A program made the position numbers and the translations under genes. A stretch of DNA of 64,000 bases. It comes from a virus (taxonomy: Duplodnaviria > Heunggongvirae > Uroviricota > Caudoviricetes). The stretch spans positions 46,179 to 110,178 of the IMG/VR virus record IMGVR_UViG_3300035492_000044, one strand, 5' to 3'. This document shows positions 1,965-38,257 of this stretch, in pieces (position 1 is the first letter of the stretch; each line of letters starts with the position of its first letter). The notes beneath the pieces are model-generated. The model saw only the letters and a program-made list of their open reading frames with translations. It ran no database searches and was not told where the DNA came from.

Positions 1965-4742
1965 ATGAAATTTGTTATCTCAAGTGACGTACACATCTTC
2001 GACTTCCAACAGTTCAACTCTGGTGGTAATCGACTGAAGCAGTTCCCGCTTCTAGCTCATCGTCTTAATGCCATTGGTAGAGAGGAGGGGTCTAAGGACC
2101 TCATCCTCGCTGGTGACATTATTCACAAGGCAGTCCTCCGGCCATATGTAGTACACGTAGCTAAGGAGTTCTTCGATATCCTTCGGCTGCACTACACCAA
2201 CATCTATTACATCGTAGCTCAACACGATGCTGATAGTAAGGCTGAAGACTTAGGGTATGGTGATAGTCTTATCCCTATTATCTGCCCAGAAGCTAAGTAC
2301 ATGGACGGCCAGATCCTCGAGTTGGATAACAACCGTACTATGGCCTTCAGCAACTGGCGACCAGAGCAGAATTGGAGTTTCATTAAGGATAAGGTAGACA
2401 TTCTTATCGGGCATCTTACTCTGCATCCTATGTATGGCCAGGAGTACGATTGCAGCAAATACGAACTAGGATTCTTTGGTGACATACACCAGAAGTCCTC
2501 GTATGACAACGGTCGTACTAATACCATCAACGTTCCTATGCCTAACTACATCTCTGATGATCAGGAAGGCAGCGTAGTAGTTCTTGAGACTGATGACTTG
2601 TCATGGAAGCGTGTGCTGACTGAGTCTGAAGACTTCAAGTATCTGAAGATCTACTACGAAGACGAAGTACCTGCAGGTCTGGAAGGATATCCCAACCTAG
2701 CTCTGGTTGGACGATCGAAGGTGGATCCCTCCATTCAGCATATTCACACTTCAGTGAATGTTGATGAAGTAATCAAGGCGATTGTATCTAAGCTGGAGCT
2801 AGGTGAAATTCATAGCCAGCTTACTGGTCAAGTAGATCGTACTGATGTTTCTCCTCTCAATCTGAATTTCCGTCTCCGTACTATGGAGATCAACAACTTC
2901 AGGTCTATAGACAGGTTCGTATATGACTTTGATAGTGGTCTCACTACTATTACTGGCCATAATGGGGCTGGTAAGAGCTCCTTCATGGGAGCCCTTGACT
3001 ACGTACTTCGTGGATCATCCACGGCTCGTACTCTGGTTAAGAAAGGGACAGATAACATGTCTGTCACTATTACACTGGACTACGATGGTCGCTCTCACAC
3101 TATCATTCGTGGTGTTTCTGGTGGCAGCGGCATTATTAAGTACATTGTGGATGGTGAGGAGATGGTTGGAGCTGGCTCTCGTCAGATTGCAGCTGAAATC
3201 TCTGCCAAGCTTCCATTCTTAGCTCACTATGAGCTTATGTACCGTAGCCAGGAAGCTCCGGGACTACTTACCAGTTACGGTTATAATGACCGAATCAATA
3301 TGGTGAGTGAACTCCTGGGTCTTAGTCTGATCGGCAAATACCATGCAGTGGCTAAGACTAAGCTAGCTGAGGCTACCGCTCAGGTTAATCGTCGGAATAC
3401 TGAGATCGAAGGACTCAAGAGAGTTATTCTTGAGTACTCTGATGTTGATTTCTCTCTTCTTGACAATAAGAAGAACCTGGAAGATCAACTGGCATGGACC
3501 AATGAGTATCTCAAGTCCTATGAGGAGGATATGGGCAGACATAGAGAGCTTGCCCTAGTCCAGAATTCGATCAAGTCAACTCAGGACATGATCAATAGCC
3601 TTAATATTACCTTGACTGGTAATGAAGAGGCTGAAATCCAGGAACTACGTAAGCAGATTTCTGATGGGGAGAGCTTGATAGCTGAATTTACATCAGCCAA
3701 TAAGACTCACTCTGATGAAAGAGCAGCTAAGAAGCAGAGAGCCAAGTCCATTGAGAGTGATATTGAATCACTTAAGAAGCAGACTACTGGTGTTATGACT
3801 GCATGTCCTAGCTGTAAACGTGCATTCGATCCTTCGGATTATGAGAATGTTCTACAACACCTTCAGGATGAGATAGCCAAGAAGACTGAAGAGGCTAATC
3901 TGATACTCGAAGATATCCAGAAGACTGCTGAGCCTCCTCATGCAGAGTCTGATATCACTGAGATCAGAAATATCCTCAACGATCTTCGCAGCAAGATAAC
4001 CACTATCAATACTAAGATTGAGAACTACAATAAAGTTCGAGGTCTGGAAGAGAAGATGGTTACCCTCAAGCTACAGGAAGTTGGCATTCAAGCATCTATC
4101 AAGTATAAGCTGGATGAGATTACTAGTAAGAAGTCGGAGTTGCAAGGTCTGGCTGATGAATGCAATCGTCAACTGGGTGCTATCGATGGACTTCAGAAGC
4201 AATGGGATAAGCTCAAGTCATCTAAGACTGAACTGGCCGATGCTGAGAAGTGCTTAGAGGAGGATATTGCTACTAAGGAAGTACTTACTAAGTACGCAGG
4301 TATCTTCGCTCCGAGTGGTGATGTCACTGCATCTGTGTTCAAGTGTGTGGCTGATGAGATGACTGATGGTCGATTCAAGGTTCGTACCGTACGTGAGCTT
4401 GCTAGTGGTGAGACTCGCATTGACTTTGACATCGAACTCCAGGTTCACGATCTGATGCTACCTTATGGGGAACTGTCGGGAGGTCAACGTACCTATGCTG
4501 ACCTGTTCTTCATGAGTAAGCTGTTCAAGATGTCAGGTGTCGTAGGATGCTTGATTCTTGATGAATCACTTCGAGCTCTGGACCCAGATGCACTTGAAGA
4601 AGTTGTAGCTGAGATCAAGAGTGCTCCTATCAACAGCATCATTCTATCGACTCACGTAGAATCATTCCAGTTCTACGATGCCCGTCTGATGGCGCAACTG
4701 GTGGATAACACTACCAGATTCAGCGTTCACGGTAAGGTGTAA
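1965..4742 (+). CDS. Fused Mre11/SbcD-like phosphoesterase nuclease plus Rad50/SbcC-like ABC ATPase in one polypeptide
   Basis: N-terminus 'MKFVISSDVH..LILAGDIIH..IVAQHD..GHLTL' matches gp47/Mre11 metallophosphatase motifs. Then Walker A 'GHNGAGKSS', long coiled coil, zinc hook 'CPSCKRAF', signature 'LSGGQRTYADLFF', Walker B 'CLILDES'. Confidence 0.85.
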   Translation: MKFVISSDVHIFDFQQFNSGGNRLKQFPLLAHRLNAIGREEGSKDLILAGDIIHKAVLRPYVVHVAKEFFDILRLHYTNIYYIVAQHDADSKAEDLGYGDSLIPIICPEAKYMDGQILELDNNRTMAFSNWRPEQNWSFIKDKVDILIGHLTLHPMYGQEYDCSKYELGFFGDIHQKSSYDNGRTNTINVPMPNYISDDQEGSVVVLETDDLSWKRVLTESEDFKYLKIYYEDEVPAGLEGYPNLALVGRSKVDPSIQHIHTSVNVDEVIKAIVSKLELGEIHSQLTGQVDRTDVSPLNLNFRLRTMEINNFRSIDRFVYDFDSGLTTITGHNGAGKSSFMGALDYVLRGSSTARTLVKKGTDNMSVTITLDYDGRSHTIIRGVSGGSGIIKYIVDGEEMVGAGSRQIAAEISAKLPFLAHYELMYRSQEAPGLLTSYGYNDRINMVSELLGLSLIGKYHAVAKTKLAEATAQVNRRNTEIEGLKRVILEYSDVDFSLLDNKKNLEDQLAWTNEYLKSYEEDMGRHRELALVQNSIKSTQDMINSLNITLTGNEEAEIQELRKQISDGESLIAEFTSANKTHSDERAAKKQRAKSIESDIESLKKQTTGVMTACPSCKRAFDPSDYENVLQHLQDEIAKKTEEANLILEDIQKTAEPPHAESDITEIRNILNDLRSKITTINTKIENYNKVRGLEEKMVTLKLQEVGIQASIKYKLDEITSKKSELQGLADECNRQLGAIDGLQKQWDKLKSSKTELADAEKCLEEDIATKEVLTKYAGIFAPSGDVTASVFKCVADEMTDGRFKVRTVRELASGETRIDFDIELQVHDLMLPYGELSGGQRTYADLFFMSKLFKMSGVVGCLILDESLRALDPDALEEVVAEIKSAPINSIILSTHVESFQFYDARLMAQLVDNTTRFSVHGKV

Positions 4743-8519: not shown

Positions 8520-8525
8520 TAAGTA

Positions 8526-8558
8526 GGGTGGGTGAAATATCCCACCCTATATTATTTT
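8526..8558 (+). terminator. rho-independent terminator (GGGTGGG..CCCACCC + TATATTATTTT)
   Basis: Hairpin + T-run after the topoisomerase genes. Confidence 0.65.
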
Positions 8559-9172: not shown

Positions 9173-10174
9173 ATGAACAATCTGGATTTACGTGCAGTAG
9201 TATTGCCAAAGGCAATCATCGAGAAATTCCTGAGCATCGAGAAAGAAGTACTCGAGTCTGGCAATCTGGCATGGTCAGTCTACGACAAGAACTGGTGGAA
9301 TGATGGTGGCATCTTCCGTATCCCAGTATCCAGCAATTGCACTGGTCAACTACTGGTAGCTATGTACCACATAGCTAAGCACGGTATCAAAGCTCTAGTC
9401 TACCCGAAGAATACCTTCGAGGGAATCAAGACTACTTATCGTATGCTTCATGCATTCGGTATTCAGACATACCAAGTGGATATGGGTCTCAATAACACCA
9501 ATATCCCATCTGCGGAAGATATCCGTGAACTCACTGGCCATTTTATCGATGACGTGCTTCTGGTAGCTACCAACATTGGTGGCATGAAGTTCGACTACGA
9601 TACCAGCGATTACCTCCATGTAATGCTGGATGGTGCACATGCCCAGTTCCTGGAATATGAAGAAGACGAGAACTACGACTCGGTAGTATACAGCTTCTTC
9701 GCTACTAAGTCTACTCCGGTGGGAGAAGGTGGTCTCATCGCTACTCGTGATGAAGAAATGGCTGACTGGCTCATCCAGACCCTTATGTACGACAAGCCTC
9801 ACTTCAAGGCTCTAGGTCTGAACTTCCGTGTATCTACGGCCACCGCTCTGAAGATGCGTTACCTCCTAACTAGTGGGGAGTCTACCAGTACTCTTCTCGA
9901 GCACAGAGTTGATATTTGGCAGATGTATGCCAAAGTATGTACTGAACTTGGAGTGAGCTTTGTCAATCCTCGTTCTGGTACCATGAACGGGTATAAGTTC
10001 ATGATTACCGATCCTCGGATCACTGACATGGAATGCCTGACTACCAGTAAGGCATTCGAACTGTACCACAACGTCTGCCCGGCTACTTATCCTCAACTGT
10101 CTGAGCAACTGCCAGAACTGGAAAGAGTATTCCGCAGTATCATCACCAAGAATCTGGAGAAAGCTTCAGCATGA
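9173..10174 (+). CDS. DegT/DnrJ/EryC1-like PLP sugar aminotransferase (short form)
   Basis: 'SFFATKSTPVGEGGLIATRDEEMADWL' resembles the DegT 'SFHxxKxxxxGEGG' lysine region. Preceded by two class-B motifs. Confidence 0.5.
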   Translation: MNNLDLRAVVLPKAIIEKFLSIEKEVLESGNLAWSVYDKNWWNDGGIFRIPVSSNCTGQLLVAMYHIAKHGIKALVYPKNTFEGIKTTYRMLHAFGIQTYQVDMGLNNTNIPSAEDIRELTGHFIDDVLLVATNIGGMKFDYDTSDYLHVMLDGAHAQFLEYEEDENYDSVVYSFFATKSTPVGEGGLIATRDEEMADWLIQTLMYDKPHFKALGLNFRVSTATALKMRYLLTSGESTSTLLEHRVDIWQMYAKVCTELGVSFVNPRSGTMNGYKFMITDPRITDMECLTTSKAFELYHNVCPATYPQLSEQLPELERVFRSIITKNLEKASA

Positions 10175-11307
10175 GTCACATGAACCTCAACCAACAAATC
10201 CCAGCTCGTCCTGTTCGTGAGTTCGACAAAGTAGTTGTCGTTACTGGTGGATCGGGATTCATCGGAGGTGCATGTGTCAAGCTCCTCAATGAAGATCCAT
10301 GCGTTTCTGAGATCCGAATCCTGGACGTAGCATTCCCTGACTACGAACTGACTTCGAAGATGCGCTACTTCCGAGTAGACGTCAACGATCTGGCAACTCT
10401 TCTGAAGTACTCTGTCGATGCTGACGAGTGGATCGACAACGTAGGTCTGCTCGGCACTGGTGATACTCATGAACTGGGTAGCTATCCTGCGACAGCTCTG
10501 GCGACTAACGTCAATGGCTTCCTCAATCAGCTGGAAGCTGCGTACCTCAACGGTGTACCTCGCTTCTTCCACCAGACCAAGAATCGCTTCGATACTACCA
10601 ATGGTACTGAAGGTGGTCTGTCTGAAAACTGGTATACTGCTACTAAGAGTATGGCGGAGATCGCTGCATTCTGGGCACGTAAGAGTCGTCATCAGCAGGT
10701 AACTGTAGTTCGTTACCTCAATGCATCCGGTCGTCGTCAGCATCTGGGTCCAGTTCGTAAGCTGTTCCCTCTGGCAGTAGTCAACGCTATTCTGGACATC
10801 GACTTCACTGTCTACGGTGATGGTCAGCAACTGGCCGACTTCATTCATGTGGAAGACCTGGCTTCTGCAGCTATGACCTTCATGCGTGCCGATAGCATGG
10901 ACAAGCCTGTCCGTATGCTGGATATCGGTACTGGTCAAGCTATCAGTATTCTTGATCTGGTCACCAAGATCAAGCAGAAGATTCCTAGCAGCAAGTCTGC
11001 TATCCAGTTCCTCCCTATGCGTAAGGGTGAGAAAGAGAATACTCGCATCGAAGCTGATCTTCGTGACATCGAGGAGGCTCGCAGCTATGGCTGGGAATGC
11101 AAGTTCTCTGAAGAAGATGTGATCAACGACTACATCCAGTACTACCTGTCTGGAGATGTGGACTACACTTACATCTACAATACCATGGTCTACTTCCAAG
11201 AGACCTACAGCCCATTCACTTCCAATGGTCAACCAATCAACATCCGTGATATGGGTGTCGAAGGTGTCCGTCAGAAGTTCATCGAGAAGATGCAGAACGA
11301 TGGCTAA
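10171..11307 (+). CDS. NAD-dependent sugar epimerase/dehydratase (extended SDR)
   Basis: 'VTGGSGFIGG' Rossmann motif and 'YTATKSMAE' YxxxK. Confidence 0.8.
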   Translation: MSHMNLNQQIPARPVREFDKVVVVTGGSGFIGGACVKLLNEDPCVSEIRILDVAFPDYELTSKMRYFRVDVNDLATLLKYSVDADEWIDNVGLLGTGDTHELGSYPATALATNVNGFLNQLEAAYLNGVPRFFHQTKNRFDTTNGTEGGLSENWYTATKSMAEIAAFWARKSRHQQVTVVRYLNASGRRQHLGPVRKLFPLAVVNAILDIDFTVYGDGQQLADFIHVEDLASAAMTFMRADSMDKPVRMLDIGTGQAISILDLVTKIKQKIPSSKSAIQFLPMRKGEKENTRIEADLRDIEEARSYGWECKFSEEDVINDYIQYYLSGDVDYTYIYNTMVYFQETYSPFTSNGQPINIRDMGVEGVRQKFIEKMQNDG

Positions 11308-12172
11308 ATACGACGTAGTGCTGACAGGTTCTGATGGCTACATTGGGACCTATGTCAAGAATGCTCTTTCCACTATGGGTCTGAGTGTTCTCTGTGTTGA
11401 CCTCAAGTCAGGTCTTCACATGGCTGACGTCATGGGTGTATCTGCTAAGTGGTTGATCCACTTAGCAGCACTTATTGATGTTCGAGAGAGCCATGACAAG
11501 AACCATGCTTACTTCGACAATAACTGTGGCGCCTACTACGATCTGGTGATGAAGAATGGTAACACATTCGAAAATATCATCTATGCTTCGAGTGCTGCAG
11601 TTTATGACGACCACGGGAACATCAATCCTCAGTCTGTCTACGGGATGACTAAGCTTAATGGGGAATACATCACTAAGATGGCTTCTCCTACTAATCACCT
11701 AGTTCTCCGGTTCGCTAACCCAGTTGGAGTCAGCCCGGTTAGTACTCCTAAGATGGGTGATGGTCTATTCTTCAAACTGGCTCAAGCAGCCGTTGATGAG
11801 AAGGTCTTCTCCATCCACAACTCCGAACATATGAAGCGGGACTTCTTCCCGGTAATCTGGATTCCTCTTCTGATCTCTGCGGTCATTAAGGATGAGAACT
11901 TCAGCATGTTCGGTACTCATGACCTATGTAGCGGAAAGCTGGTCACTGTTCGCAGTGTCGTTGAAGCTCTCTGCGATCTTCATGAGATCGGGTACAAACT
12001 GGTAGCACCTCCCATCGGAACTCTGGAGAATGTGGAAGAGCGTGATTGCCCTATCCTCAACCAGTACCTGGATATCGTTTATCGTGGGTATGATCCAGTT
12101 GCATTTGTTACTGAGCAGTTCCCCAACTATCTCAAGTTAGCAGCTAAGATCGCTATCAAGTCCAGCGTTTAA
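11300..12172 (+). CDS. NAD-dependent epimerase/reductase family (SDR)
   Basis: 'LTGSDGYIGTYV' and 'YGMTKLNGEY' YxxxK; ATG overlaps the upstream stop. Confidence 0.7.
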   Translation: MAKYDVVLTGSDGYIGTYVKNALSTMGLSVLCVDLKSGLHMADVMGVSAKWLIHLAALIDVRESHDKNHAYFDNNCGAYYDLVMKNGNTFENIIYASSAAVYDDHGNINPQSVYGMTKLNGEYITKMASPTNHLVLRFANPVGVSPVSTPKMGDGLFFKLAQAAVDEKVFSIHNSEHMKRDFFPVIWIPLLISAVIKDENFSMFGTHDLCSGKLVTVRSVVEALCDLHEIGYKLVAPPIGTLENVEERDCPILNQYLDIVYRGYDPVAFVTEQFPNYLKLAAKIAIKSSV

Positions 12173-12191
12173 GTACGGCGAAAGCCTGTTA

Positions 12192-12226
12192 GGGTAATGG
12201 CGCGAATGTCATTACCCTATTTATTT
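12192..12226 (+). terminator. terminator-like hairpin GGGTAATG..CATTACCC + TATTTATTTC, fused to a degenerate class-B motif
   Basis: The hairpin begins at the GGGT of the motif's GTTAGGGT. Confidence 0.5.
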
Positions 12227-12242
12227 CTAGGAGATATGATTC

Positions 12243-13385
12243 ATGAAGATTTCGTACATCCAGTCTGCGTATGGTGGTGCTCAATGTAAGCGTGGGTATC
12301 CACACGTACGTGACATCGTACCTCTTCTGAAAGGCCTGATGAATGATGGCCATGAAATCACCCAAGTATTCCCAGACTACGCTAAGGGTGGTCTGATTGA
12401 CCGTTACTGGCATGACCCTAAGGCTCGTCAAGAGAACTTGATGGAGCACTTCCGTCTAGGTGTTCGTCCGTATCACCATATCCAGAAGGAAGATACTGAC
12501 ATCGTTCTGATGTACGCTATGCCGTGGAGCGACATCAACACCAACTATGTAATCGAGGGTCTTCAGTGGTACACTGACCGCAAGATCCCCATCTATTACA
12601 TCTGCGCTGACTACGAGATCGAGAATACTCGCGCTGGTGATAGCGTGATCTTCAAGATCATTCGCACTCGTCATCCAGAAATCTGGGCGAATATCAAACA
12701 TATCTTCACGTGCATCCCGTTCTATCCAGAGAAGCTGAAGAATGAATTCGGTCTGGAGAATGTGACGTACATTCCGACTACTTATGACCCGAGCTATGAA
12801 CTTCCGATCCGTAATGTTCACGAACGTGACAGTACCCTAATTTTCGGAGGTCCTATCAGCTTCCGTCATAACCTGTTCGCTCATATGGACAAGCTGGTTA
12901 AGTCATCTGACCGACTGTGCCACTTCTATAATGAGTCGGACAAAGCTCGACGTAACTCTCGTGCCAAGGATCCGATCGATGTACGTGCTACGTACAAGGA
13001 CTCTCCGAACGTAGTAGTCTATGATGAGCCGATTTACATGGCTTATCCCGAGTATCTGGCCAAGCTGACTAATAGCTGCTTCGCTGTGGGTGATTCTACC
13101 TTTACTGATCTGAACATCGGTCATGATGTCAATCACCACACTACTCGCATCATCGATGGTCTCTATGCCGGCTGCCTGTCTCTGATGACTGAGACTCAGT
13201 CCATCAAGTTGTATGTAGGGAATCCTGATCAGTTCTTTATCGAGAGATTCGATCAGGACGATTTCATGGCAGTTCTGTCTAACAGTATCTTCTTTGATGA
13301 TGCAGTAAGAGCTCGTCGAGAAGCATTCAATGAGGCATTCGGTATCGATCGCTGGTACCCAATCTTCGCATCCAAACTGGTATAA
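12243..13385 (+). CDS. GT-B glycosyltransferase resembling T4 DNA beta-glucosyltransferase (Bgt)
   Basis: 'MKISYI', 'LIFGGPISFRH' vs Bgt 'VIYGGSFRSGQRE', and 'CFAVGDSTFTDL..RIIDGLYAGCLSLMTE' vs Bgt 'LIIGDKNYND..RVWETMASDAVMLIDE' (Bgt sequence recalled from memory). Confidence 0.45.
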   Translation: MKISYIQSAYGGAQCKRGYPHVRDIVPLLKGLMNDGHEITQVFPDYAKGGLIDRYWHDPKARQENLMEHFRLGVRPYHHIQKEDTDIVLMYAMPWSDINTNYVIEGLQWYTDRKIPIYYICADYEIENTRAGDSVIFKIIRTRHPEIWANIKHIFTCIPFYPEKLKNEFGLENVTYIPTTYDPSYELPIRNVHERDSTLIFGGPISFRHNLFAHMDKLVKSSDRLCHFYNESDKARRNSRAKDPIDVRATYKDSPNVVVYDEPIYMAYPEYLAKLTNSCFAVGDSTFTDLNIGHDVNHHTTRIIDGLYAGCLSLMTETQSIKLYVGNPDQFFIERFDQDDFMAVLSNSIFFDDAVRARREAFNEAFGIDRWYPIFASKLV

Positions 13386-13387
13386 TC

Positions 13388-14266
13388 ATGCTCAAGAATA
13401 CAGCTCTAGGCTACGTGATTGCATTCTACAATGAGACTGTGATCGATCGTTTCGTCAAGGGTGGTATTACTCGTCGTGTACCCCATGGGTACACTTCGGG
13501 TGACTCCACATACAGCACTCTGCTTCCTCTGGCTGAGTTCACTCCATACATAACTGTCTTCTTCGACCCAGCACTGGAAGATAAGATTAAGGAGTCTGGT
13601 GCATTCGATCTTATCAAGACCTTGTCTGATGAGTCGATGATCACTTATCACCATGAGATGTGCAAGCAATTCAAGGGTCGCTGGAGACTGATGCAGGAGA
13701 TGACTCAGCGTCAAGACGCTGAGTACCTGTTTATCGTCGAAGATGACTTTGTGCTGAACAAGCTGAACTATGACACCACTGTGCTTGATAATGCACTGGA
13801 GTCTGGCAAGTACGACTTCATCAGTCTTAATCGCAACTACAGCATGAAGGCCACTGAGGCTGAACATACTCATTCGTTCTATGGTATCCCCATGAGCGAG
13901 CGTGGTATGCGTGATGGATTTATTGTTCGTCGCACTATGACGAATGATCTCTTCGAGTATGCCATCAAGCACTTCTTCAAAGAATACAAGGCTGGTAACT
14001 ACAAGTACCACCACATCCATCAGTGGGATGACTGCCTCTGGGTTAGTGGAGTCAAGCACAATCCTCAGGTATTCTCCAGTGTAGTATACGAAGGAACTAT
14101 TCCTCTGATTCATGCTGAGTTCTATAGTAAGTCCGCCAGGTCTTCCTTCGTTCGTAACTACGAGATAGGTGGAGAGATTGCTCCACTGGAATCGTTCCTA
14201 CAAGAACTGATTGTGGAGTCTCATGTTGACTTCGCAACTAAACTCTATGGTGAACTCAATGTCTGA
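13388..14266 (+). CDS. putative GT-A fold glycosyltransferase (GT25-like)
   Basis: 'EYLFIVEDDFVL' DxD-like motif. Confidence 0.35.
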   Translation: MLKNTALGYVIAFYNETVIDRFVKGGITRRVPHGYTSGDSTYSTLLPLAEFTPYITVFFDPALEDKIKESGAFDLIKTLSDESMITYHHEMCKQFKGRWRLMQEMTQRQDAEYLFIVEDDFVLNKLNYDTTVLDNALESGKYDFISLNRNYSMKATEAEHTHSFYGIPMSERGMRDGFIVRRTMTNDLFEYAIKHFFKEYKAGNYKYHHIHQWDDCLWVSGVKHNPQVFSSVVYEGTIPLIHAEFYSKSARSSFVRNYEIGGEIAPLESFLQELIVESHVDFATKLYGELNV

Positions 14267-15071
14267 GATGCCAACAAGACAGAAATTAGTGATGTGTATT
14301 CTTAGTGGTGGATTCGATCCTATCCACTCTGCGCACATCGACATGATCAAAGATGCTGCAGAGAAGTATGACTTCGTCATTGTCGGTGTCAATAGTGACG
14401 AGTGGCTGACTCGCAAGAAGGGCATGAACTTCATGTCCATCAAGGATCGTATTGCAGTAGTCTCTCAATTCAAGGGAGTAACTGGTGTTCATACGTTCGA
14501 TGACTCTGACGATACAGCTAACCAGCTGATTCTGAAGATCCATGAAGAGTATGGGAATAACTACAAGATCGTCTTCGGTAATGGAGGTGATCGCGTAGCT
14601 GGTAAGACTATCCCAGAAGAAACCCTATGTAAGACTCTAGGTATCGACATCGTCGATGGCCTTGGCGGTACTACTAAGGGTAATAGCTCTTCGTGGATCC
14701 TGGGTCGCTGGTCTGACTTCGCACGTGAGGCTCAGCCAGTAGTCCGTAGATGGGGCAAGTTCTTCAGTCTGTTCAAGCAGGATGGAGTCAAGGTCAAGAA
14801 GCTGGTGATTGATTCTGGTAAGAGTATCAGTCTTCAGCTTCATCATCATCGTAGTGAGCACTGGATCGTAACTAGCGGCGCTGGTCTTTTCAGTGTAGAT
14901 GGACACGAACAATATCTGTCAGAAGGTAAGTCGGTATTCGTACCGGCATGTGCCCAGCACAAGATTACCAATACTGGCTCAATTCCTCTCGAGATCATTG
15001 AGGTTCAAACTGGCAAAATACTGTCAGAAGAGGACATCATCCGTTTCGAAACTATTGAAGGGTCTCTGTAA
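14259..15071 (+). CDS. Sugar-phosphate nucleotidyltransferase (cytidylyltransferase-like HxGH) fused to a C-terminal cupin domain
   Basis: 'SGGFDPIHSAHIDMI' nucleotidyltransferase motif. C-terminal 'HHHRSEHWIVTSGAG..VPACAQHKITNTG' is a cupin, like ManC/RfaE-type enzymes. Confidence 0.7.
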   Translation: MSEMPTRQKLVMCILSGGFDPIHSAHIDMIKDAAEKYDFVIVGVNSDEWLTRKKGMNFMSIKDRIAVVSQFKGVTGVHTFDDSDDTANQLILKIHEEYGNNYKIVFGNGGDRVAGKTIPEETLCKTLGIDIVDGLGGTTKGNSSSWILGRWSDFAREAQPVVRRWGKFFSLFKQDGVKVKKLVIDSGKSISLQLHHHRSEHWIVTSGAGLFSVDGHEQYLSEGKSVFVPACAQHKITNTGSIPLEIIEVQTGKILSEEDIIRFETIEGSL

Positions 15072-16567
15072 TGACACTCAAGATTGGCATCACTTCGTTT
15101 GGCTCTGGTGTACGTGGTATCTCCAAGTACGAGGAGAGTCTTAGTAATAGCGGTATCATCGATTCTGGTCTCTTCCAGATGTTGGTCCAAGAGATGGGTG
15201 CTGAACTCATCATTGTAGGTGCCATGCAGAAACGCTGTAAGGATATTGTGCAGGATGGCACTAATCCTTATCACGAGCCGTGGATGGACGGTATCCGAGT
15301 AGTTCAGTCATGGGCTGATATGCCAGAAGACCTGGATTGCCTAGTAGTGCAGCAAGGCGCTGAGAATCTTCGATTCACTGTCAGCTTTGATGGTGTCACC
15401 TGCACTGCTGCCTATCATGTCTACAAACTGATGGACGTATACCGCAACACTCCTGTTGTATACTTCCAGACAGACTTTGGCACTCCTCTCTGGATGCCAG
15501 AGACTTATGGTGGATTCTTCGCCAAGGCATTCAAGCCAGATGCTCTGTACAAGAAGCGTAAGGTGTATGTCCTTCCTGCTGGTCACATCAACAATGATGC
15601 AGCACGTAAGATCATGGTTAATACTCTGGCCTATCGTCATAGTGGAATCGAGATCCTGGACAACTATCCTGACATTCACTTCCTGACTGACATCAACTAC
15701 AAAGATAGTTACCCTATCACCAGTGCTCCGACAGGTCTGGCATTCGCTGGTAAGTCACGGAGATTCGGTGACAGATCTCCTCTCGTACGAGACATCATTA
15801 AGGCTCTGCCCAGTGAGATCAGCTTCACTCTCATGGGCAAGTGGTCTGAGATGGTAACTGAAGTCCTAAGAGAAAATGATGTCAATAAGGGTTATCTGCA
15901 GCAACATAGCGAAGTCTTGAAGACTTACAATGAAGCAGGATTCACTCTGTACATTACTGCCCCAGAGTATCGCACCATTCGAGCCTTCACGTCTCGTATG
16001 ACTGATGCCATTGTGGCTAATTGCCTGCCTATCATCTGGCACGAAGACTGGGATGTAATCAAGCATCAGTTCGGAGTTGATCCTGACGTAACTACTATCT
16101 TGGCTGGACTGGTAGTTGAAAAGGCAGAAGATATTCCCCATAAGATGGTTGAGTTCTACGATAAGGACAAGCGTGAGAGTATCCTGTCCATGCTTCGTAA
16201 TACTTTCCTCTATCAGTCGGATACTGCCAAGGAGAACATTGGTCGTAAGCTGGAGTACATCATCAATCACGACGATGCTGATGAGACTGTAGCGGTACCT
16301 ACTGAGATCTTCGGCTTGTACGTTGATGGGCAGTTGTCGGCACGTCGTAATAAGGCAGCCACTACTGAAGAAGCTCAAGCACGCTATGAAGAAGCATTCA
16401 ATAGCGAGCTGACAGCTAATGACATCTACAACGTTAAGATGCAGACTGGACTCTTCATGGAGTACGGTAGCAAGGAGACGTTCAAAGACGTACCTCAAGA
16501 GTGGCTGGAGAAGACCTTCAATACTCCATCTACTAAACGCTTCCTCGAGTACGCCCTATCCAACTAG
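15071..16567 (+). CDS. hypothetical; weak resemblance to T4 alpha-glucosyltransferase (Agt) N-terminus
   Basis: 'KIGITSFGSGVRGISKY' vs Agt 'RICIFMARGLEGCGVTKF'; 'RSPLVRDIIKA' vs 'RSPAFIAIKEKG'. Tentative. Confidence 0.3.
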   Translation: MTLKIGITSFGSGVRGISKYEESLSNSGIIDSGLFQMLVQEMGAELIIVGAMQKRCKDIVQDGTNPYHEPWMDGIRVVQSWADMPEDLDCLVVQQGAENLRFTVSFDGVTCTAAYHVYKLMDVYRNTPVVYFQTDFGTPLWMPETYGGFFAKAFKPDALYKKRKVYVLPAGHINNDAARKIMVNTLAYRHSGIEILDNYPDIHFLTDINYKDSYPITSAPTGLAFAGKSRRFGDRSPLVRDIIKALPSEISFTLMGKWSEMVTEVLRENDVNKGYLQQHSEVLKTYNEAGFTLYITAPEYRTIRAFTSRMTDAIVANCLPIIWHEDWDVIKHQFGVDPDVTTILAGLVVEKAEDIPHKMVEFYDKDKRESILSMLRNTFLYQSDTAKENIGRKLEYIINHDDADETVAVPTEIFGLYVDGQLSARRNKAATTEEAQARYEEAFNSELTANDIYNVKMQTGLFMEYGSKETFKDVPQEWLEKTFNTPSTKRFLEYALSN

Positions 16568-16642
16568 GGCGCTTAGAGTACTGGAGAGCCAGTTAGGGTG
16601 GGAGGAGTTTCGGCTCCCTCACCCTTCTACTTAGGAGACATC

Positions 16643-17362
16643 ATGAGCTACATGTCGTCACAAGAGATTCTGGATAGGTTAGTGGAATTGTCTGGTAAAG
16701 AAGACAAGACTGAGCTCATCCAGTTCGTAACTGATAAGCTGCCATGCATTAAGAATTCTGATATGTGCCAGCCTATCTTCGAATTCATCTACAAGAACGT
16801 ACCTGATCCATGGCATTACATGGATGACCGTCATAATGCCTTCAATATGAAGTTCATGAATGATCTTCGTCCACATATCGAAGGTAAGTCCGTAGTGGAT
16901 ATTGGATCTGGCGTAGGTGTTAAGTGGAACTATGCAGGATTTCCACTTCAGTCTGTTACTCTGGTGGATATTAGCCCAGAGTGCATTGAGAAGGCTAAGG
17001 AGCTGACTAAGCCTAATTCCTTCTTCGTGAACTACGTAGTCGGTGGATTCCAGGACTACGATATCCCAGAAGACTTGGATGTTCTCTATACGATGAACGC
17101 CCTGTACTATGTTCCGACCGGAGCACGTACTACCTTCTACCGTAATGTGGCTGTGAAGAAGCCTCGCATGATTATTACGGGATCGAATAATGTCGACCCT
17201 AATGACGACTGGCGTGACTACATGATCAAGTGGCCAGAACTCCTCAGCACCAGATACAAGTGTCAAGATGTACTTGGGGACAAGAAGTATGAGCTGGCTG
17301 GTGTAGTCCACACCGTTGACGGTGACTTGGATTACTACCTAAACGTCTACGTTTTGAAATAA
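16643..17362 (+). CDS. Class I SAM-dependent methyltransferase
   Basis: 'VVDIGSGVGV' motif I and 'DLDVLYTMNALYYV'. Start moved to the ATG after RBS 'aggaga', downstream of the class-A motif hairpin. Confidence 0.55.
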   Translation: MSYMSSQEILDRLVELSGKEDKTELIQFVTDKLPCIKNSDMCQPIFEFIYKNVPDPWHYMDDRHNAFNMKFMNDLRPHIEGKSVVDIGSGVGVKWNYAGFPLQSVTLVDISPECIEKAKELTKPNSFFVNYVVGGFQDYDIPEDLDVLYTMNALYYVPTGARTTFYRNVAVKKPRMIITGSNNVDPNDDWRDYMIKWPELLSTRYKCQDVLGDKKYELAGVVHTVDGDLDYYLNVYVLK

Positions 17363-17404
17363 AACGTGTAAAATCACGACGTTTAAGTCTCTTGAAAACC
17401 TGTT

Positions 17405-17436
17405 AGGGTAGGGGAACTCTTCCTCTACCCTATTTT
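17405..17436 (+). terminator. terminator-like hairpin GGGTAGGGGAA..TTCCTCTACCC + TATTTTTG, fused to class-B motif
   Basis: Hairpin + T-run immediately after the motif. Confidence 0.5.
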
Positions 17437-17451: not shown

Positions 17452-18456
17452 ATGAGAAATAAGCCTGCAGACATACCTTATTGTGGGGTAGATAGAGCCA
17501 AGATTCTATCAGCACGCCCAATAATTAATGCTGATGTTCTCAGAATGTACGTGTCGTGGATCAAGCAGAGAGCTCACGTATACTACATGAAAGAGATTGT
17601 CGGAGAGCCTGGTCCATGGACCACTGATCCGATTCTTAGTAAGTACAAGTTCACCAATATCCGGCGAGAACTGGATCGGGAGACTAAGTGGCTTATTGAT
17701 AATGTGATCAACAGTGATAAGCTGTCTATCCTGGATAAGGCACTCAATTGTGCATTATTCCGGTGCATCAATACTGGGCAGTACTTCCAGGAAGTCTGGC
17801 ATGGTCCACTACGCCTTAGTAATATGAAGGATTTCGATTTCAATCATCTTAATGATATGGAACGAGATTCGGAATATTCTGGACCTCTGCAGTCTAATGC
17901 GTACTTCCTTTCTCAGATGAGACGAGTGGCTAACGACCTATGCAAGAGGCAGAATGCTAGTCATCTAGCATACAGCAATACTGCTCTAGCGTACTTCATA
18001 TGGTTCCATCGCCGGACTATTGAAGATGCATTAGCAGCTGATACTCCATCTAAGGCTACGATTCTTCTGGAGACTATCCCAGGATTCGGTAAGTTCATGT
18101 CATACCAAGTGTGGGTAGACTGGACTTACATGGAAGACTACGAGTTTAGTGAAAATGAGTTCGTACTATCTGGACCAGGATGTGACCTAGGCCTGTCGTA
18201 TCTATTCAAAGACCAGGATGGCATGTCTCCAGAAGAGACTCTATTCTGGATGAGAGACAATCTAGTTAAAGTCTGCAGAGACCTTGAAATAGATTTTGAT
18301 CCTGGAGTGATTCAGAGCTACTTACCACCAGATAAACGTAACTTTGGTGTTATGCAGCACGAAAATGGTCTATGTGAGCTAAGCAAGTATTACCGTCTTC
18401 ATACAGGTGAACGTATGAGGGCAAGATATTATGCCCCTGGTACTGATAGTAAATAA
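17452..18456 (+). CDS. hypothetical protein
   Basis: ORF preceded by class-B motif 17377 and RBS. Confidence 0.4.
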   Translation: MRNKPADIPYCGVDRAKILSARPIINADVLRMYVSWIKQRAHVYYMKEIVGEPGPWTTDPILSKYKFTNIRRELDRETKWLIDNVINSDKLSILDKALNCALFRCINTGQYFQEVWHGPLRLSNMKDFDFNHLNDMERDSEYSGPLQSNAYFLSQMRRVANDLCKRQNASHLAYSNTALAYFIWFHRRTIEDALAADTPSKATILLETIPGFGKFMSYQVWVDWTYMEDYEFSENEFVLSGPGCDLGLSYLFKDQDGMSPEETLFWMRDNLVKVCRDLEIDFDPGVIQSYLPPDKRNFGVMQHENGLCELSKYYRLHTGERMRARYYAPGTDSK

Positions 18457-18862
18457 GAGGACTTATCCTCTAACTGACATTGAGTATGTCGGGAGACCCT
18501 CTCCTCTTGGTAATCCGTTCGAGATAGGATGTGATGGTACCAGACGAGTTGTAATAGAAAAGTATCGATTGTGGTTACATGAGAAGATAAGTAATCGCGA
18601 CCCTCTTATTATTACTGAGCTGACAAGACTTCATAATGAGTTAGTCAGCAAGTATATGATTAAGTTAGCATGTTGGTGCTCCCCTCTTCAGTGTCATGCA
18701 TGTGTGATAAAACACGTTCTTGATAATTGGGAGAAGTATATGTCTACTGAAGTAGAAAGCTGTCTTGATGACATTAATGAAGTTATTCCGCCTGAGGATA
18801 AACCTCTGGAAGATGTAAATGACGGTGATGCTACACCGGCATATGTTAATCAAGACCGGTAA
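18431..18862 (+). CDS. hypothetical Cys-rich protein
   Basis: ORF overlapping the upstream gene end. Confidence 0.35.
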   Translation: MPLVLIVNKRTYPLTDIEYVGRPSPLGNPFEIGCDGTRRVVIEKYRLWLHEKISNRDPLIITELTRLHNELVSKYMIKLACWCSPLQCHACVIKHVLDNWEKYMSTEVESCLDDINEVIPPEDKPLEDVNDGDATPAYVNQDR

Positions 18863-26571: not shown

Positions 26572-27101
26572 GTCATGTTCGGATCTACCACTACCACATA
26601 ACCGTGGAGTGTGATCGTGAAGAACTGATTAATTTCTCCAAACTATTAGGAGCTAAGGCAACTACTATCGATTTGCATCGAGATGCCAGGATGCAGATTG
26701 ACCGTATGCTAACCAAATACTCCACCGATCTGGCAGATATGAAGAGTATTACTGCCAGTCATTCAACCCAGATCCACGAATTAGGATATGAGGTAAAGAG
26801 AGCAAAGATCGAGGAAGTCCTTAGTACCTTCGTAGGTATTGACATAAAGGACTACTTGTATCTTGAGGCTCATATCAAAGTGGCTGATGACGGCCATCTC
26901 CCGGACGTAGATGGATTCTCAATGTCCACTAATCCATTCCAGGGAAATAGATTCTATAATGCTCGTATTTATACTGAGGAAGACCTCGTACGATACTGGC
27001 GGAATATTAAGTATCTACCTAACATAGTCAAGACTCAACTCGAAGGAGTAGTCTATGACTCAAACCAAGACCACGACAAGTGGTGGAGTAATCATGAATA
27101 A
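26568..27101 (+). CDS. hypothetical protein
   Basis: ORF, ATGA-coupled to the upstream gene. Confidence 0.4.
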   Translation: MSHVRIYHYHITVECDREELINFSKLLGAKATTIDLHRDARMQIDRMLTKYSTDLADMKSITASHSTQIHELGYEVKRAKIEEVLSTFVGIDIKDYLYLEAHIKVADDGHLPDVDGFSMSTNPFQGNRFYNARIYTEEDLVRYWRNIKYLPNIVKTQLEGVVYDSNQDHDKWWSNHE

Positions 27102-27588
27102 AGCACAGAAAGTTCTTAGTAAGCTTCGTAGCATTAATGAGGGCTATATCGCTATCTCATTTGATGCAGATACACGTCAGCGTCTGTCGGAGATCTGTGA
27201 TCTTATTGGCGAGACTTCTATCATGGAGGAAATCTCCTTCGTCGATAGTAACGAGTTCCATACGACCCTCATGTACTCTCCCACTACCCCGGTACTAGAC
27301 ATCATTCCGGAACTGGTAGGTAAGACTATCGTGGCACATAACCCACGATTCCAACTGTTCGGACCAGAAAATGATGTACTCGTAATTCAGTTCGAATCTC
27401 CCGAGCTGGATATTCTGAATCAGAAGTACAAGGATATGGGTGAGATTCCAAGTGAACTGAGTGCAGAGTACAAGCCTCACATTACTCTGGCTAAGGATGT
27501 AGTAGGCCTTGAAATGCCTACTCTTCCGGCACTACCTCTCAACATCCCATTGGTTATTACTGACCATTACGCTGAAGAAATCAAGTAG
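27094..27588 (+). CDS. 2H phosphoesterase (LigT/Acb1-like) carrying the paralog-family N-terminal peptide
   Basis: Two HxT/S motifs, 'FHTTLMYS' and 'PHITLAKD'; N-terminal 'MNKAQKVLSKLRSINEG'. Confidence 0.7.
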   Translation: MNKAQKVLSKLRSINEGYIAISFDADTRQRLSEICDLIGETSIMEEISFVDSNEFHTTLMYSPTTPVLDIIPELVGKTIVAHNPRFQLFGPENDVLVIQFESPELDILNQKYKDMGEIPSELSAEYKPHITLAKDVVGLEMPTLPALPLNIPLVITDHYAEEIK

Positions 27589-30579: not shown

Positions 30580-31112
30580 TGAATAAGCCCTGGATGATTC
30601 AAGTTGATAACGCAATGCAGACTAACTATCAGTACGCGCTTATCATGCCAGTTGGTGATCTAAGTGATCTTCCTAACTTCAAGCCAGAATTAACTCCATT
30701 CCAGATGCTGGAGTATGGAGTATTTGGTGGTAAGTACTTCGGTGATATCCCAGATACTACGGAGTACAACGAAGAGTTCAGGGAGCTTATTCGTCGTAAG
30801 TCGGCAGGGGTAGGTAAGCCCTACGATGTAAATCTCAATTACTTCAAGGTAGATGCAAGTCAGTCTCTGACTGATTGGGTAGCTAGTGGCTGGGTACGTG
30901 AGCAAGATCCTCGTGGATGGTTCGAGTGGTATTGCCGTACCTGGTTCGGTCGCAGAAGTCCCGACGATAATCGGCAGATTGGAAGATGGTCAGCCATTAC
31001 TCGCCATATTGGACAGATTAAGAAGCACTGTGAAATAGGTGACCATAACTGCCGTCCTCGTCAACGTCAAGCTCTACTTCACTGGGCTTATGACACTGTA
31101 GGTAAGTATTAA
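30579..31112 (+). CDS. hypothetical W/R-rich protein
   Basis: 'PRGWFEWYCRTWFGRRSPDDNRQIGRW'; no family recognised. Confidence 0.4.
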   Translation: MNKPWMIQVDNAMQTNYQYALIMPVGDLSDLPNFKPELTPFQMLEYGVFGGKYFGDIPDTTEYNEEFRELIRRKSAGVGKPYDVNLNYFKVDASQSLTDWVASGWVREQDPRGWFEWYCRTWFGRRSPDDNRQIGRWSAITRHIGQIKKHCEIGDHNCRPRQRQALLHWAYDTVGKY

Positions 31113-31543
31113 TGGAAAGAATAGATTCATTCAGAGGAGAGTATGAATTCCTCTCCAATATGTACCCAGTTAAGCTGGTGTACGAAGGGATCGAATATCC
31201 GTCTTCTGAGAATGCCTATCAAGCAGCTAAGTACACGGATGTCAAAGTCAAGATGCATATAGCTACCTTGACACCTAAGGAATCGAAGAAGTATTCACGT
31301 GAGCACCCAATTACTACTCCTAATTGGAATGCTGTTCGTCTCCACACTATGTACCGAATCCTTGAGATTAAGTTCTCTGTCCCTGAGTTGTTATTCAAGC
31401 TCTTGAAGACAGGTAATGCTGAGCTTGTTGAAGGGAACTGGTGGGGAGACATCTACTGGGGTAAAGTAGATGGATGTGGCCATAACTTCATGGGCAAGCT
31501 ATTAACCGGAATACGTGAAGTAAATAAGGACGTGAGGATATAA
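31112..31543 (+). CDS. NADAR (YbiA-like, DUF1768) domain protein
   Basis: 'FRGEYEFLSNMYP', 'SSENAYQAAKY', and the C-terminal 'ELVEGNWWGDIYWG' match the NADAR/YbiA pattern. Confidence 0.75.
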   Translation: MERIDSFRGEYEFLSNMYPVKLVYEGIEYPSSENAYQAAKYTDVKVKMHIATLTPKESKKYSREHPITTPNWNAVRLHTMYRILEIKFSVPELLFKLLKTGNAELVEGNWWGDIYWGKVDGCGHNFMGKLLTGIREVNKDVRI

Positions 31544-36438: not shown

Positions 36439-36443
36439 ATTTC

Positions 36444-37046: not shown

Positions 37047-37050
37047 TTAT

Positions 37051-37787: not shown

Positions 37788-37799
37788 TATTGTGGTTAC

Positions 37800-38240: not shown

Positions 38241-38257
38241 TCATTAGTGAGGACTAA

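Follow-up and report, generated by a model that had tools for sequence, protein, structure and literature searches.

Do eight tightly packed genes in an uncultured phage build a sugar and place it on the phage's own DNA, and if so, on which base? The question arises from a cluster of open reading frames (ORF1 to ORF8, positions 9173-17362) in a 64,000-nucleotide stretch, hereafter the window, of a Caudoviricetes record (IMG/VR record IMGVR_UViG_3300035492_000044, positions 46,179 to 110,178), which is part of a large virulent-type phage. An earlier note on this DNA had proposed that these genes make an activated sugar and transfer it onto a hydroxymethylated pyrimidine; homology and recurrent gene neighborhoods support that idea, except that the predicted acceptor is 5-hydroxymethyluracil (hmU) and not 5-hydroxymethylcytosine (hmC or 5hmC), as indicated by Asn177 of a thymidylate synthase (TS) homolog. 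To the resulting reading, namely that the system would carry out post-replicative O-glycosylation of 5-hydroxymethyldeoxyuridine (5-hmdU) in phage DNA with a modified sugar made by the phage itself, we give a probability of roughly 60%. The gene scan covered the 64-kb window of a source contig of ~110 kb, and all work was computational.

Glycosylated DNA bases are a main means by which phages evade restriction enzymes, CRISPR-Cas, and other defenses, and their biosynthetic enzymes are valued reagents, with the beta-glucosyltransferase (BGT) of phage T4 serving as the standard tool for mapping 5hmC. To our knowledge, DNA sugar-transfer enzymes have so far been defined for cytosine derivatives alone, and for the sugar-bearing thymidines of phages SP-15, YerA41, and Carin-5, whose chemistry is partly known, we know of no identified transferase. 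A family of BGT-like enzymes found in company with uracil-type hydroxymethylases supplies a concrete candidate for the hmU glycosyltransferase that has been missing, as well as a possible 5hmU-labelling reagent. Members of this family occur in three cultured phages (Molly, Ab1-TPeters, and vB_AbaM_3098), so the prediction is directly checkable, and the locus provides a testable functional context for the proteins called aGPT-Pplase clade 1 or HMUDK_hel. In the available literature, we found no description of a BGT-clade transferase combined with a uracil-type hydroxymethylase and with a dedicated pathway of the amino-sugar type accompanied by an aGPT-Pplase clade 1 gene.

ORF7, a homolog of T4 beta-glucosyltransferase

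The argument starts from the seventh gene of the cluster.

15071-16567, + strand: ORF7, T4 BGT homolog, predicted DNA glycosyltransferase

Three independent routes (profile search of PDB, profile alignment with hhalign, and structure prediction followed by Foldseek) identify ORF7 as a homolog of T4 BGT. An exhaustive HMMER search of 1.84 billion proteins recovered a family of only 24 representatives, and the profile of these 24 sequences, run against 177,635 PDB sequences, matched T4 BGT as the sole glycosyltransferase (1bgt, E=2.3e-13, BGT residues 47-340 covered), with the next match at E=0.15. hhalign of the family against T4 BGT, the latter taken from the T4 genome, gave a probability of 97.1% (E=7e-11), at an identity of ~16-18%. 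The AlphaFold2 (AF2) model of ORF7 (pLDDT 89.2, pTM 0.88) returned three T4 BGT structures as the top Foldseek matches in PDB (1qkj, 1j39, and 1bgu; E=6e-10 to 5e-9; TM 0.67-0.74 against T4 BGT structures when normalised on BGT), and the same search also returned many GT-B enzymes that do not act on DNA (E=1e-8 to 1e-6). A glycosyltransferase of SP-15 is likewise among the structural neighbors of ORF7. An additional C-terminal helical region of ~150 aa distinguishes ORF7 from BGT.

The active-site residues are preserved. D135, R230, R235, and R309 of ORF7 align with D100, R191, R195, and R269 of BGT, and across the 24 family members R230 and R309 are invariant, with D135 and R235 conserved in at least 90%. 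We take Asp100 of BGT to be the catalytic residue and Arg191, Arg195, and Arg269 to bind the UDP diphosphate; in agreement with these presumed roles, the BGT D100A mutant entry (1nzd) scored lower against the profile at precisely the D100 column. From this homology, we predict that ORF7 acts as a DNA glycosyltransferase.

The relationship surfaced only with the 24-sequence profile out of the exhaustive HMMER search. Single-sequence searches with ORF7 gave no match in Pfam (E<=10, save a spurious Exostosin), PHROGs, NCBIfam, or PDB; a four-sequence profile retrieved nothing from PDB; and word-indexed homolog searches, whether with the single sequence or the four-sequence alignment, returned the query itself only. 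Pattern scans of IMG/VR for the ORF4 and ORF7 families yielded Maribacter phage Molly only, or nothing, and tblastn of ORF7 in GenBank phages found no homolog in SP-15, in Ralstonia phage RP13, or in any record outside Acinetobacter and Maribacter phages.

Two genes upstream belong to the same unit, one of which is probably also relevant to sugar transfer.

12243-13385, + strand: ORF4, 380 aa, probable GT-B glycosyltransferase, distant relative of the ORF7/BGT-like family
13388-14266, + strand: ORF5, 292 aa, linked to the system solely by its position within the ORF4-8 unit

ORF4 is a probable GT-B glycosyltransferase distantly related to the ORF7 family. Its sole homolog among GenBank phages is gp116 of Molly (27.5%), which adjoins an aminotransferase, and hhalign of ORF4 plus gp116 against the ORF7 family gave 82.8% (E=9e-6), co-linear over 309 columns. 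BLASTP against T4 BGT was not significant; Pfam, PHROG, NCBIfam, and PDB (phmmer) yielded no match; and a word-indexed homolog search returned only the query. The AF2 model of ORF4 was weak (pLDDT 64, pTM 0.64) and was built on an alignment borrowed from the ORF7 family, so we do not rely on its Foldseek ranking, in which generic GT-B enzymes predominate and T4 BGT appears only at rank 24. The earlier note had named ORF4 as the BGT-like enzyme and ORF7 as possibly like the T4 alpha-glucosyltransferase (AGT). These labels were effectively swapped: ORF7 is the real BGT homolog, ORF4 is a distant GT-B relative, and neither is AGT-like, with hhalign of ORF7 against T4 AGT at 1.1% probability and AGT structures absent from its top Foldseek matches. 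The label of GT-A DxD transferase given to ORF5 stood on an EDD tripeptide alone and is unsupported, no library having returned a significant match; a Peptidase_M1 hit is spurious (E=0.004, below cutoff, HEXXH motif missing), and no ORF5 homolog was found in related BGT-like loci.

The acceptor base, the HMUDK_hel gene, and the DNA polymerase

Whether a BGT homolog would find a hydroxymethylated base to act on depends on genes that lie elsewhere in the window.

44450-45514, + strand: TS homolog with a C-terminal extension (Pfam Thymidylat_synt, 8e-18), predicted dUMP hydroxymethylase
42877-43581, + strand: all-alpha dUTPase_2-type NTP pyrophosphatase (Pfam PF08761, 5.5e-25), predicted dUMP supply and/or dTTP/dUTP exclusion
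43698-44438, + strand: P-loop nucleotide kinase beside the TS homolog (Pfam AAA_28, 3e-10), predicted 5-hmdUMP kinase
45527-46192, + strand: YfbR-like HD 5'-deoxynucleotidase (Pfam PF12917, 1e-17), predicted dTMP/dNMP clearance
49843-50385, + strand: dCTP deaminase-like enzyme (Pfam DCD, 1.4e-28), predicted route to dUTP/dUMP

The first three, remote from the cluster, had been pointed out before and are present by Pfam. As judged from their sequences, the five together are the classical set for replacing T with 5-hmdU. The TS homolog has the Cys146 of the family (ThyA numbering), Asp at the Cys-3 position (likewise Asp in T4 gp42 and the PhiW-14 dUMP hydroxymethylase, Leu143 in E. coli ThyA), Asp169 within an RSGD motif, and Asn177, where T4 gp42 has Asp. 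Among these diagnostic positions, Asn177 specifies uracil and D169N marks 5-hydroxy-dCMP synthases (PMC13326640). The nearest relatives of the TS homolog are in ViI-like phages (47% over 68% of the length), and it aligns over its full length with PhiW-14 gp230, a deoxyuridylate hydroxymethyltransferase (33%); both ViI-like phages and PhiW-14 make hmU-derived bases (PMC8989533). Because of this uracil-type signature and these closest relatives, the acceptor is predicted to be hmU, not hmC.

We rejected the TS homolog as a synthase of 5-hydroxycytosine, since position 169 is Asp and not Asn (criterion of PMC13326640), and set aside a 5hmC reading on the grounds that position 177 is Asn and not Asp. 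A cytosine-based system as in T4 or RB69/DLP3, with sugars on 5-hmC or 5-hydroxycytosine, can draw on the fact that 5-hmC is the natural BGT acceptor and that, by sequence, a CMP hydroxymethylase (MilA) is what the TS homolog matches best in PDB; however, the residues just given, an encoded dCTP deaminase, closest phage relatives that are dUMP hydroxymethylases, and a scan of the window ORFs that showed neither a cytosine methyltransferase nor a TET enzyme leave it with hardly any probability.

The kinase beside the TS homolog has homologs only in RP13, Ab1-TPeters (annotated 'thymidylate kinase'), EP_H11, and IME392. As a candidate for the 5-hmdU DNA kinase (5-HMUDK) it was rejected, given that it shows no similarity to the ViI, M6, and PhiW-14 kinases and pairs with the TS homolog. 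The Ab1-TPeters gene syntenic with the HD nucleotidase is annotated as a dATP triphosphohydrolase.

Directly downstream of the cluster are two genes that the earlier note had not included, and farther along lies the polymerase.

17452-18456, + strand: HMUDK_hel protein (= aGPT-Pplase clade 1; Pfam PF18723, E=6e-57, no other Pfam match)
18431-18862, + strand: DUF4326 protein (Pfam DUF4326, 5e-19), sharing 26 bp with the 3' end of the HMUDK_hel gene, upstream of ribonucleotide reductase
52526-55702, + strand: family A DNA polymerase, 1058 aa (Pfam DNA_pol_A)

The HMUDK_hel gene is the strongest contextual link of the cluster to thymidine hypermodification, and the DUF4326 gene may be part of the modification module. 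The best phage match of the HMUDK_hel protein is its ortholog in RP13, ORF120 (g120, 41%), which has been named aGPT-Pplase1 (bioRxiv 10.1101/2025.03.26.645540); homologs also occur in ViI-like phages. The nearest relatives of the polymerase, in Acinetobacter phage Ab1-TPeters (38.7%), RP13 (36%), and Escherichia phages EP_H11/IME392 (34%), are members or neighbors of the SP15-like polymerase group, a group of polymerases fused to uracil-DNA glycosylase (UDG) that was described from T-hypermodified phages and includes those of RP13 and EP_H11/IME392 (bioRxiv 10.1101/2025.03.26.645540). Pfam detected no UDG in the first 400 residues of the window's polymerase, in which ~700 N-terminal residues are without a Pfam match.

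These affinities open the most serious alternative, which we nevertheless consider unlikely: the sugars might sit, as in SP-15, YerA41, and Carin-5, on a longer linker and/or phosphate at uracil C5, so that the BGT-like and GT-B enzymes would add sugars to the linker or lengthen an oligosaccharide, with the HMUDK_hel protein helping to install the linker. In addition to the SP15-like polymerase relatives, it is favored by the linker-phosphate-sugar thymidines of YerA41, Carin-5, and SP-15, which are accompanied by a sugar/glycosyltransferase gene block near the polymerase (PMC12686479), by the HMUDK_hel/aGPT-Pplase1 gene held in common with RP13, and by the SP-15 glycosyltransferase among the structural neighbors of ORF7. 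Against it, a tblastn search gave no ORF7 homolog in SP-15, in RP13, or in any YerA41-like record that the collection may contain, neither a 5-HMUDK-type kinase nor a pentyl-linker enzyme was recognised in the window, and BGT is known to act on a hydroxymethyl group carried by a flipped pyrimidine. The DNA here was, moreover, assembled by ordinary metagenomic sequencing, unlike that of SP-15/YerA41/Carin-5-type phages; the DNA of YerA41, RP13, and Carin-5 resisted standard sequencing (PMC12686479; bioRxiv 10.1101/2025.03.26.645540).

Sugar-nucleotide genes, recurrent neighborhoods, and the proposed mechanism

The remaining five genes of the cluster would provide the sugar.

9173-10174, + strand: ORF1, 333 aa, divergent DegT/DnrJ/EryC1-type pyridoxal-phosphate (PLP) enzyme, sugar aminotransferase-like
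10171-11307, + strand: ORF2, 378 aa, extended short-chain dehydrogenase/reductase (SDR), nucleotide-sugar epimerase/dehydratase/decarboxylase-like
11300-12172, + strand: ORF3, 290 aa, GalE/RmlD-like extended SDR, true start ATG at 11300, overlapping the ORF2 stop
14223-15071, + strand: ORF6, cytidylyl/adenylyltransferase-like nucleotidyltransferase fused to a cupin of the type II phosphomannose-isomerase type
16643-17362, + strand: ORF8, 239 aa, small-molecule-type class I SAM methyltransferase

All of these had been recognised in the earlier note by their general class, and the assignments hold, apart from the start of ORF3, which had been placed at 11156. ORF1 matches Pfam PF01041 (DegT_DnrJ_EryC1) at E=1e-9 and 38.5 bits against a gathering score of 19.8, carries the Schiff-base (PLP) lysine of the family in the motif YSFFATKSTPVGEGG, matches DesI and PseC weakly in NCBIfam, and had no match in PDB by sequence. 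ORF2 contains the motifs TGGSGFIGG and YTATK and matches Epimerase (1e-21) and GDP_Man_Dehyd (5e-12) in Pfam; its top solved relatives are UDP-glucuronate decarboxylase (1.7e-11), then GalE and RmlB, and its NCBIfam matches are all under the equivalog cutoffs. The Pfam matches of ORF3 are Epimerase (1.4e-12) and RmlD_sub_bind (8e-9), with galE and rmlD sub-threshold in NCBIfam. Both halves of the ORF6 fusion are clear from Pfam (CTP_transf_like 3e-12, MannoseP_isomer 2.6e-32) and NCBIfam (rfaE_dom_II 1.7e-12, GMP_PMI C-terminus 9e-34), and in PDB it matches an ethanolamine-phosphate cytidylyltransferase (7e-8). ORF8, whose start at 16643 is preceded by an AGGAG ribosome-binding site, matches Methyltransf_25 (2.4e-8), Methyltransf_11, and, weakly, NodS in Pfam, with UbiG and BchM sub-threshold in NCBIfam.

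From these assignments, the product of ORF1-3, ORF6, and ORF8 would be a modified nucleotide sugar, probably an amino sugar and possibly methylated. Three specific candidates were considered, namely a UDP-Ara4N-like sugar (UXS-like SDR plus aminotransferase), a perosamine-like sugar (phosphomannose-isomerase cupin, dehydratase-like SDR, and DegT), and an ADP-heptose derivative (RfaE-like nucleotidyltransferase), and none is better supported than the others.

What ties such a pathway to DNA is the company that BGT-like genes keep in other phages. The ORF7-family loci with enough flanking sequence all lie on phage contigs, and in all but one the setting is a replication module; the exception is locus L018, where the BGT-like gene follows a T4-like portal gene. 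The gene orders are as follows.

Maribacter phage Molly: UDP-glucose dehydrogenase, SDR, BGT-like gene, TS homolog
L011: BGT-like gene, kinase, TS homolog
L012: SDR, BGT-like gene, radical SAM
L016/17: BGT-like gene, ligase, HMUDK_hel, kinase, TS homolog
L019/20: polymerase, HMUDK_hel, BGT-like gene (overlapping), DegT
L021: ORF1-like DegT, BGT-like gene, kinase, TS homolog
L022: BGT-like gene, ORF6-like nucleotidyltransferase directly downstream

The DegT gene directly upstream of the BGT-like gene in L021 encodes a protein with 27% identity to ORF1 (E=3e-13) and the same lysine motif, and the nucleotidyltransferase of L022 shares 46% identity with the N-terminal domain of ORF6 (E=1e-15). A kinase-TS pair stands beside the BGT-like gene in L011, L016, and L021, and the accompanying TS homologs have the uracil/hydroxymethylase signature in all five examined. 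Weak ORF7 homologs also occur in Acinetobacter phages, directly after topoisomerase II, which is the slot that the cluster occupies here; in Ab1-TPeters the BGT-like gene is followed by two annotated glycosyltransferases, and sugar-synthesis genes are absent from that slot. Through these recurrent neighborhoods, the BGT-like transferase is tied to the sugar-nucleotide enzymes, to the hmU pathway, and to HMUDK_hel in one module. This recurrence is our main argument that ORF1-3, ORF6, and ORF8 feed a DNA transferase and not a surface glycan.

Two of the cultured phages deserve a remark of their own. Molly carries homologs of both ORF7 (gp102) and ORF4 (gp116; Molly loci L006 5953-7107 and L001 7738-12497), together with a UDP-glucose dehydrogenase, an SDR, an aminotransferase, and a uracil-type TS homolog, a set reminiscent of the UDP-4-amino-4-deoxy-arabinose route. 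Its gp102 bears the GenBank label 'beta glucosyl transferase' and is undiscussed in the Molly paper; the published descriptions of Molly and of vB_AbaM_3098 contain no mention of DNA modification. The 'complete' record of Acinetobacter phage vB_AbaM_3098 (PV081573) is 55.6 kb long, compared with 109.8 kb in its close relative Ab1-TPeters, with identical gene order in the shared region, so this record may be incomplete.

Within the window, the eight ORFs are tightly packed on the + strand (overlaps of 4, 8, and 1 bp, gaps of 2 to 75 bp) between topoisomerase II and HMUDK_hel/ribonucleotide reductase, that is, within a replication and nucleotide-metabolism module. The earlier note had counted them as eight co-directional genes, which is accurate; the + strand, however, carries every credible gene of the 64-kb window, and co-directionality is therefore no signal in itself. 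The G+C content of the cluster equals that of the remainder of the window, and megablast of the cluster against GenBank phages gave no match, so a close relative at the DNA level is absent there. Two conserved terminator-like hairpins found by a terminator scan divide the cluster into ORF1-3 and ORF4-8.

12190-12219, + strand: terminator-like hairpin TAGGGT...ACCCTA with a T-rich tail, between ORF1-3 and ORF4-8
17404-17432, + strand: terminator-like hairpin TAGGGT...ACCCTA with a T-run, closing the ORF4-8 unit

The first hairpin is one reason to consider a split of functions, in which ORF7, perhaps with ORF4, would use a host nucleotide sugar such as UDP-glucose, and ORF1-3, ORF6, and ORF8 would serve virion-protein glycosylation or host-envelope remodelling. 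T4 BGT takes host UDP-glucose as its donor, and the related Acinetobacter phages combine a BGT-like gene and two glycosyltransferases in a slot without sugar-synthesis genes, so the transferase can work without them. Against such a split, homologs of ORF1 or of an ORF6 domain lie immediately beside BGT-like genes in the unrelated contigs L021, L022, and L019/20, in Molly and L012 this place is taken by SDRs and a UDP-glucose dehydrogenase, and ORF7 itself is flanked by ORF6 and ORF8 in a single transcription unit, with no structural or lysis genes near the cluster. We regard it as distinctly unlikely.

A further alternative would remove DNA altogether: the cluster could serve a capsule, lipopolysaccharide/O-antigen conversion, or protein glycosylation, and the likeness of ORF7 to BGT would reflect shared GT-B ancestry only. 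DegT, SDR, nucleotidyltransferase, and GT-B genes are the usual parts of surface-polysaccharide pathways, and the non-DNA GT-B enzymes among the Foldseek matches, the isoelectric point (pI) of ORF7, which is not basic, and the Pfam matches of five family members to Glyco_trans_1_2 fit this view. It has to contend, however, with T4 BGT as the only glycosyltransferase matched in PDB, with the retained catalytic and UDP-binding residues, and with the placement of the family beside TS, kinase, HMUDK_hel, and polymerase genes in phage replication modules (L018 excepted); flippase, glycan-type polymerase, and lipid-carrier transferase genes were not present among the window ORFs scanned. Its probability is accordingly small.

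Several observations weigh against O-glycosylation of 5-hmdU by a phage-made sugar. For ORF7, none of the 24 family members matches the T4 BGT-type Pfam models at E<=0.01, and the five with a Glyco_trans_1_2 match have that match only; the protein is also acidic (pI 5.2, compared with 9.05 in T4 BGT) and thus lacks a global DNA-binding signature; as an indicator of DNA binding, global charge is here uninformative or slightly negative. The GT-B assignment of ORF4 depends on the hhalign match (~83%) and a low-confidence model from a borrowed alignment, and ORF5 has no significant match in Pfam (E<=10), PHROGs, NCBIfam, PDB, or GenBank phages. The SDR and DegT matches are all far under the equivalog cutoffs, and therefore no specific activity or sugar pathway can be named; a phosphomutase or sugar kinase was not found in the 64-kb window. 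In the window ORFs scanned there is neither a 5-HMUDK nor a clade 2 aGPT-Pplase to accompany HMUDK_hel, and assembly of the DNA as a ~110-kb contig by ordinary metagenomics argues against a very bulky modification of most T residues. Finally, the reading is built on homology and gene neighborhoods in an uncultured phage.

With these reservations, O-glycosylation of 5-hmdU would comprise three parts. Before replication, judging by homology, the dCTP deaminase and dUTPase_2 would supply dUMP, the TS homolog would convert dUMP to 5-hmdUMP, and the adjacent P-loop kinase together with host kinases would raise it to 5-hmdUTP, with the HD nucleotidase removing competing dTMP and the phage family A polymerase inserting hmU instead of T. 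For the donor, the nucleotidyltransferase domain of ORF6 would activate a sugar-1-phosphate, its cupin domain being of the phosphomannose-isomerase type; the two SDRs would oxidise, epimerise, or reduce the sugar; the DegT-like ORF1 would transaminate a keto intermediate to an amino sugar; and the methyltransferase ORF8 would N- or O-methylate it. On the replicated DNA, ORF7 would then flip hmU out and transfer the sugar onto the hydroxymethyl oxygen by an inverting mechanism as in T4 BGT; D135 would serve as the base, and R230, R235, and R309 would hold the diphosphate. A second or alternative sugar might come from ORF4, ORF5 may also contribute, and HMUDK_hel would be an accessory associated with hmU-DNA. 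Judging from T4 and other hypermodified phages, the modification would serve to protect the DNA from restriction enzymes and other DNA-targeting defenses.

A more specific version, which we offer tentatively as a possibility and not as our expectation, is that the ORF7 family is a hitherto unrecognised, hmU-specific BGT-like clade whose product is a 'base J-like' O-glycosyl-5-hmdU, that the sugar is a methylated amino sugar giving zwitterionic DNA, and that HMUDK_hel is an hmU-recognising partner.

Comparison with known systems and the wider window

The closest point of reference is T4. ORF7 shares with T4 BGT (1bgt, 1j39, 1qkj) the GT-B fold, the catalytic Asp, and the three diphosphate-binding Arg residues, and, as in the T4 glucosyl-hmC system, the gene sits in a replication/nucleotide module of a virulent-type phage in which a TS homolog would make the hydroxymethylated pyrimidine in advance. 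ORF7 differs from T4 BGT in sequence (~16-18% identity), in having no BGT-type Pfam match, in its extra ~150-aa C-terminal region, and in being acidic. At the level of the system, the TS homolog here is of the uracil type, which makes hmU the predicted acceptor, the phage encodes its own sugar-nucleotide enzymes, whereas T4 uses host UDP-glucose, and there is no AGT counterpart.

In product class, the prediction resembles base J, the beta-D-glucosyl-hydroxymethyluracil of kinetoplastids, where JBP dioxygenases make hmU on DNA and the modified base functions in transcription control. The likeness, an O-glycoside at the hydroxymethyl group of 5-hmU in DNA, is one of mode of action only and not of family: the transferase of base J is unrelated, whereas here hmU would arise at the nucleotide level, a BGT-like transferase is encoded, and a sugar other than plain glucose is probable.

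Among phages with hmU-derived bases, the pathways of ViI, M6, PhiW-14, SP10, and PaMx11 combine a dUMP hydroxymethylase and 5-HMUDK with aGPT-Pplase2/AADT (PMC8989533). The pre-replicative 5-hmdU route and the logic of decorating hmU after replication would be the same here, and the HMUDK_hel gene is shared with ViI-like phages. In those systems, however, an amino acid or polyamine displaces phosphate, whereas we predict a sugar delivered from a nucleotide sugar by glycosyltransferases; the P-loop DNA kinase 5-HMUDK and the clade 2 aGPT-Pplase (the amino acid:DNA transferase) used there were not found in the window.

Sugar-bearing thymidines have been chemically demonstrated in SP-15, YerA41, and Carin-5 (PMC12686479; PMC9023294; bioRxiv 10.1101/2025.03.26.645540). 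Common to these phages and the present one are a sugar (here predicted) on a thymine-replacing base, a polymerase of the same broad group, genes for dCTP deaminase, dUTPase, and a TS homolog, and a sugar-nucleotide/glycosyltransferase block in the replication region. They differ in having a pentyl-type linker plus phosphate and a modification of ~0.5-1 kDa that blocks ordinary sequencing, unlike the DNA here, which went through standard metagenomic assembly; moreover, the transferase here is related to BGT, and tblastn found no counterpart of it in SP-15 and RP13.

On the cytosine side, glycosylated 5-hydroxycytosine in RB69, DLP3, and RL38J1 (PMC13326640) and TET-dependent 5hmC glycans (bioRxiv 10.1101/2023.12.21.572611) have been described. 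These systems likewise use a hydroxyl handle made by a TS homolog or oxidase, GT-B transferases that add one to three sugars, and phage nucleotide-sugar synthesis. They act on cytosine, however, with D169N TS homologs and transferases that resemble GT4 BshA, MshA, and PimA and not BGT, and their arabinose-from-ribulose-5-P and galactofuranose pathways are without orthologs of ORF1-3 and ORF6.

The replication and metabolism genes of the window (all + strand) also include an SbcCD fusion, a 5'-3' exonuclease, a two-subunit topoisomerase II, ribonucleotide reductase, and a helicase; the window further contains 8 tRNAs, a permuted tmRNA, and, besides the family A polymerase of 1058 aa, split genes for RNA polymerase beta'.

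The two hairpins that divide and close the cluster belong to a set of six intergenic hairpins with TAGGGT...ACCCTA stem ends on the + strand (8524-8549, 12190-12219, 17404-17432, 43589-43618, 47917-47938, and 62810-62840), compared with 0.07 expected by chance in the window. They mostly lie directly after stop codons, those from the terminator scan have T-rich tails, and together they suggest a phage-specific signal for termination or RNA processing.

A permuted tmRNA of the two-piece type lies at 37807-38159 (+ strand) inside a tRNA block (36060-41966, 8 tRNA genes). It scored 104 bits with Rfam tmRNA_permuted and 86.6 bits, barely over the gathering score, with beta_tmRNA, and the tag given by ARAGORN is ANDESFAPLALVA. 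The beta-proteobacterial flavor of the tmRNA, which fits with a relative in Ralstonia phage RP13, hints at the host group.

A NADAR domain protein, of a kind linked to the undoing of DNA ADP-ribosylation, is encoded at 31112-31543 (+ strand; 1e-16), and an Acb1-like anti-CBASS phosphodiesterase at 27055-27588 (+ strand; Pfam 3e-12); both are likely anti-defense genes. Toward the end of the window, on the + strand, lie the parts of a split multisubunit RNA polymerase resembling beta' (Rpb1 domains 1-2 at 58240-59694 and 3-5 at 59776-61299) and a PolX/pol-beta-like gene (62818-63738), a notable content for a genome of only ~110 kb. Near the beginning of the window, SbcD (metallophosphoesterase) and SbcC (SMC-type ATPase) are fused into one 925-aa protein (1965-4742, + strand), and the Acinetobacter relatives have a syntenic ORF of similar length (~935 aa), annotated as SbcC-like in Ab1-TPeters.

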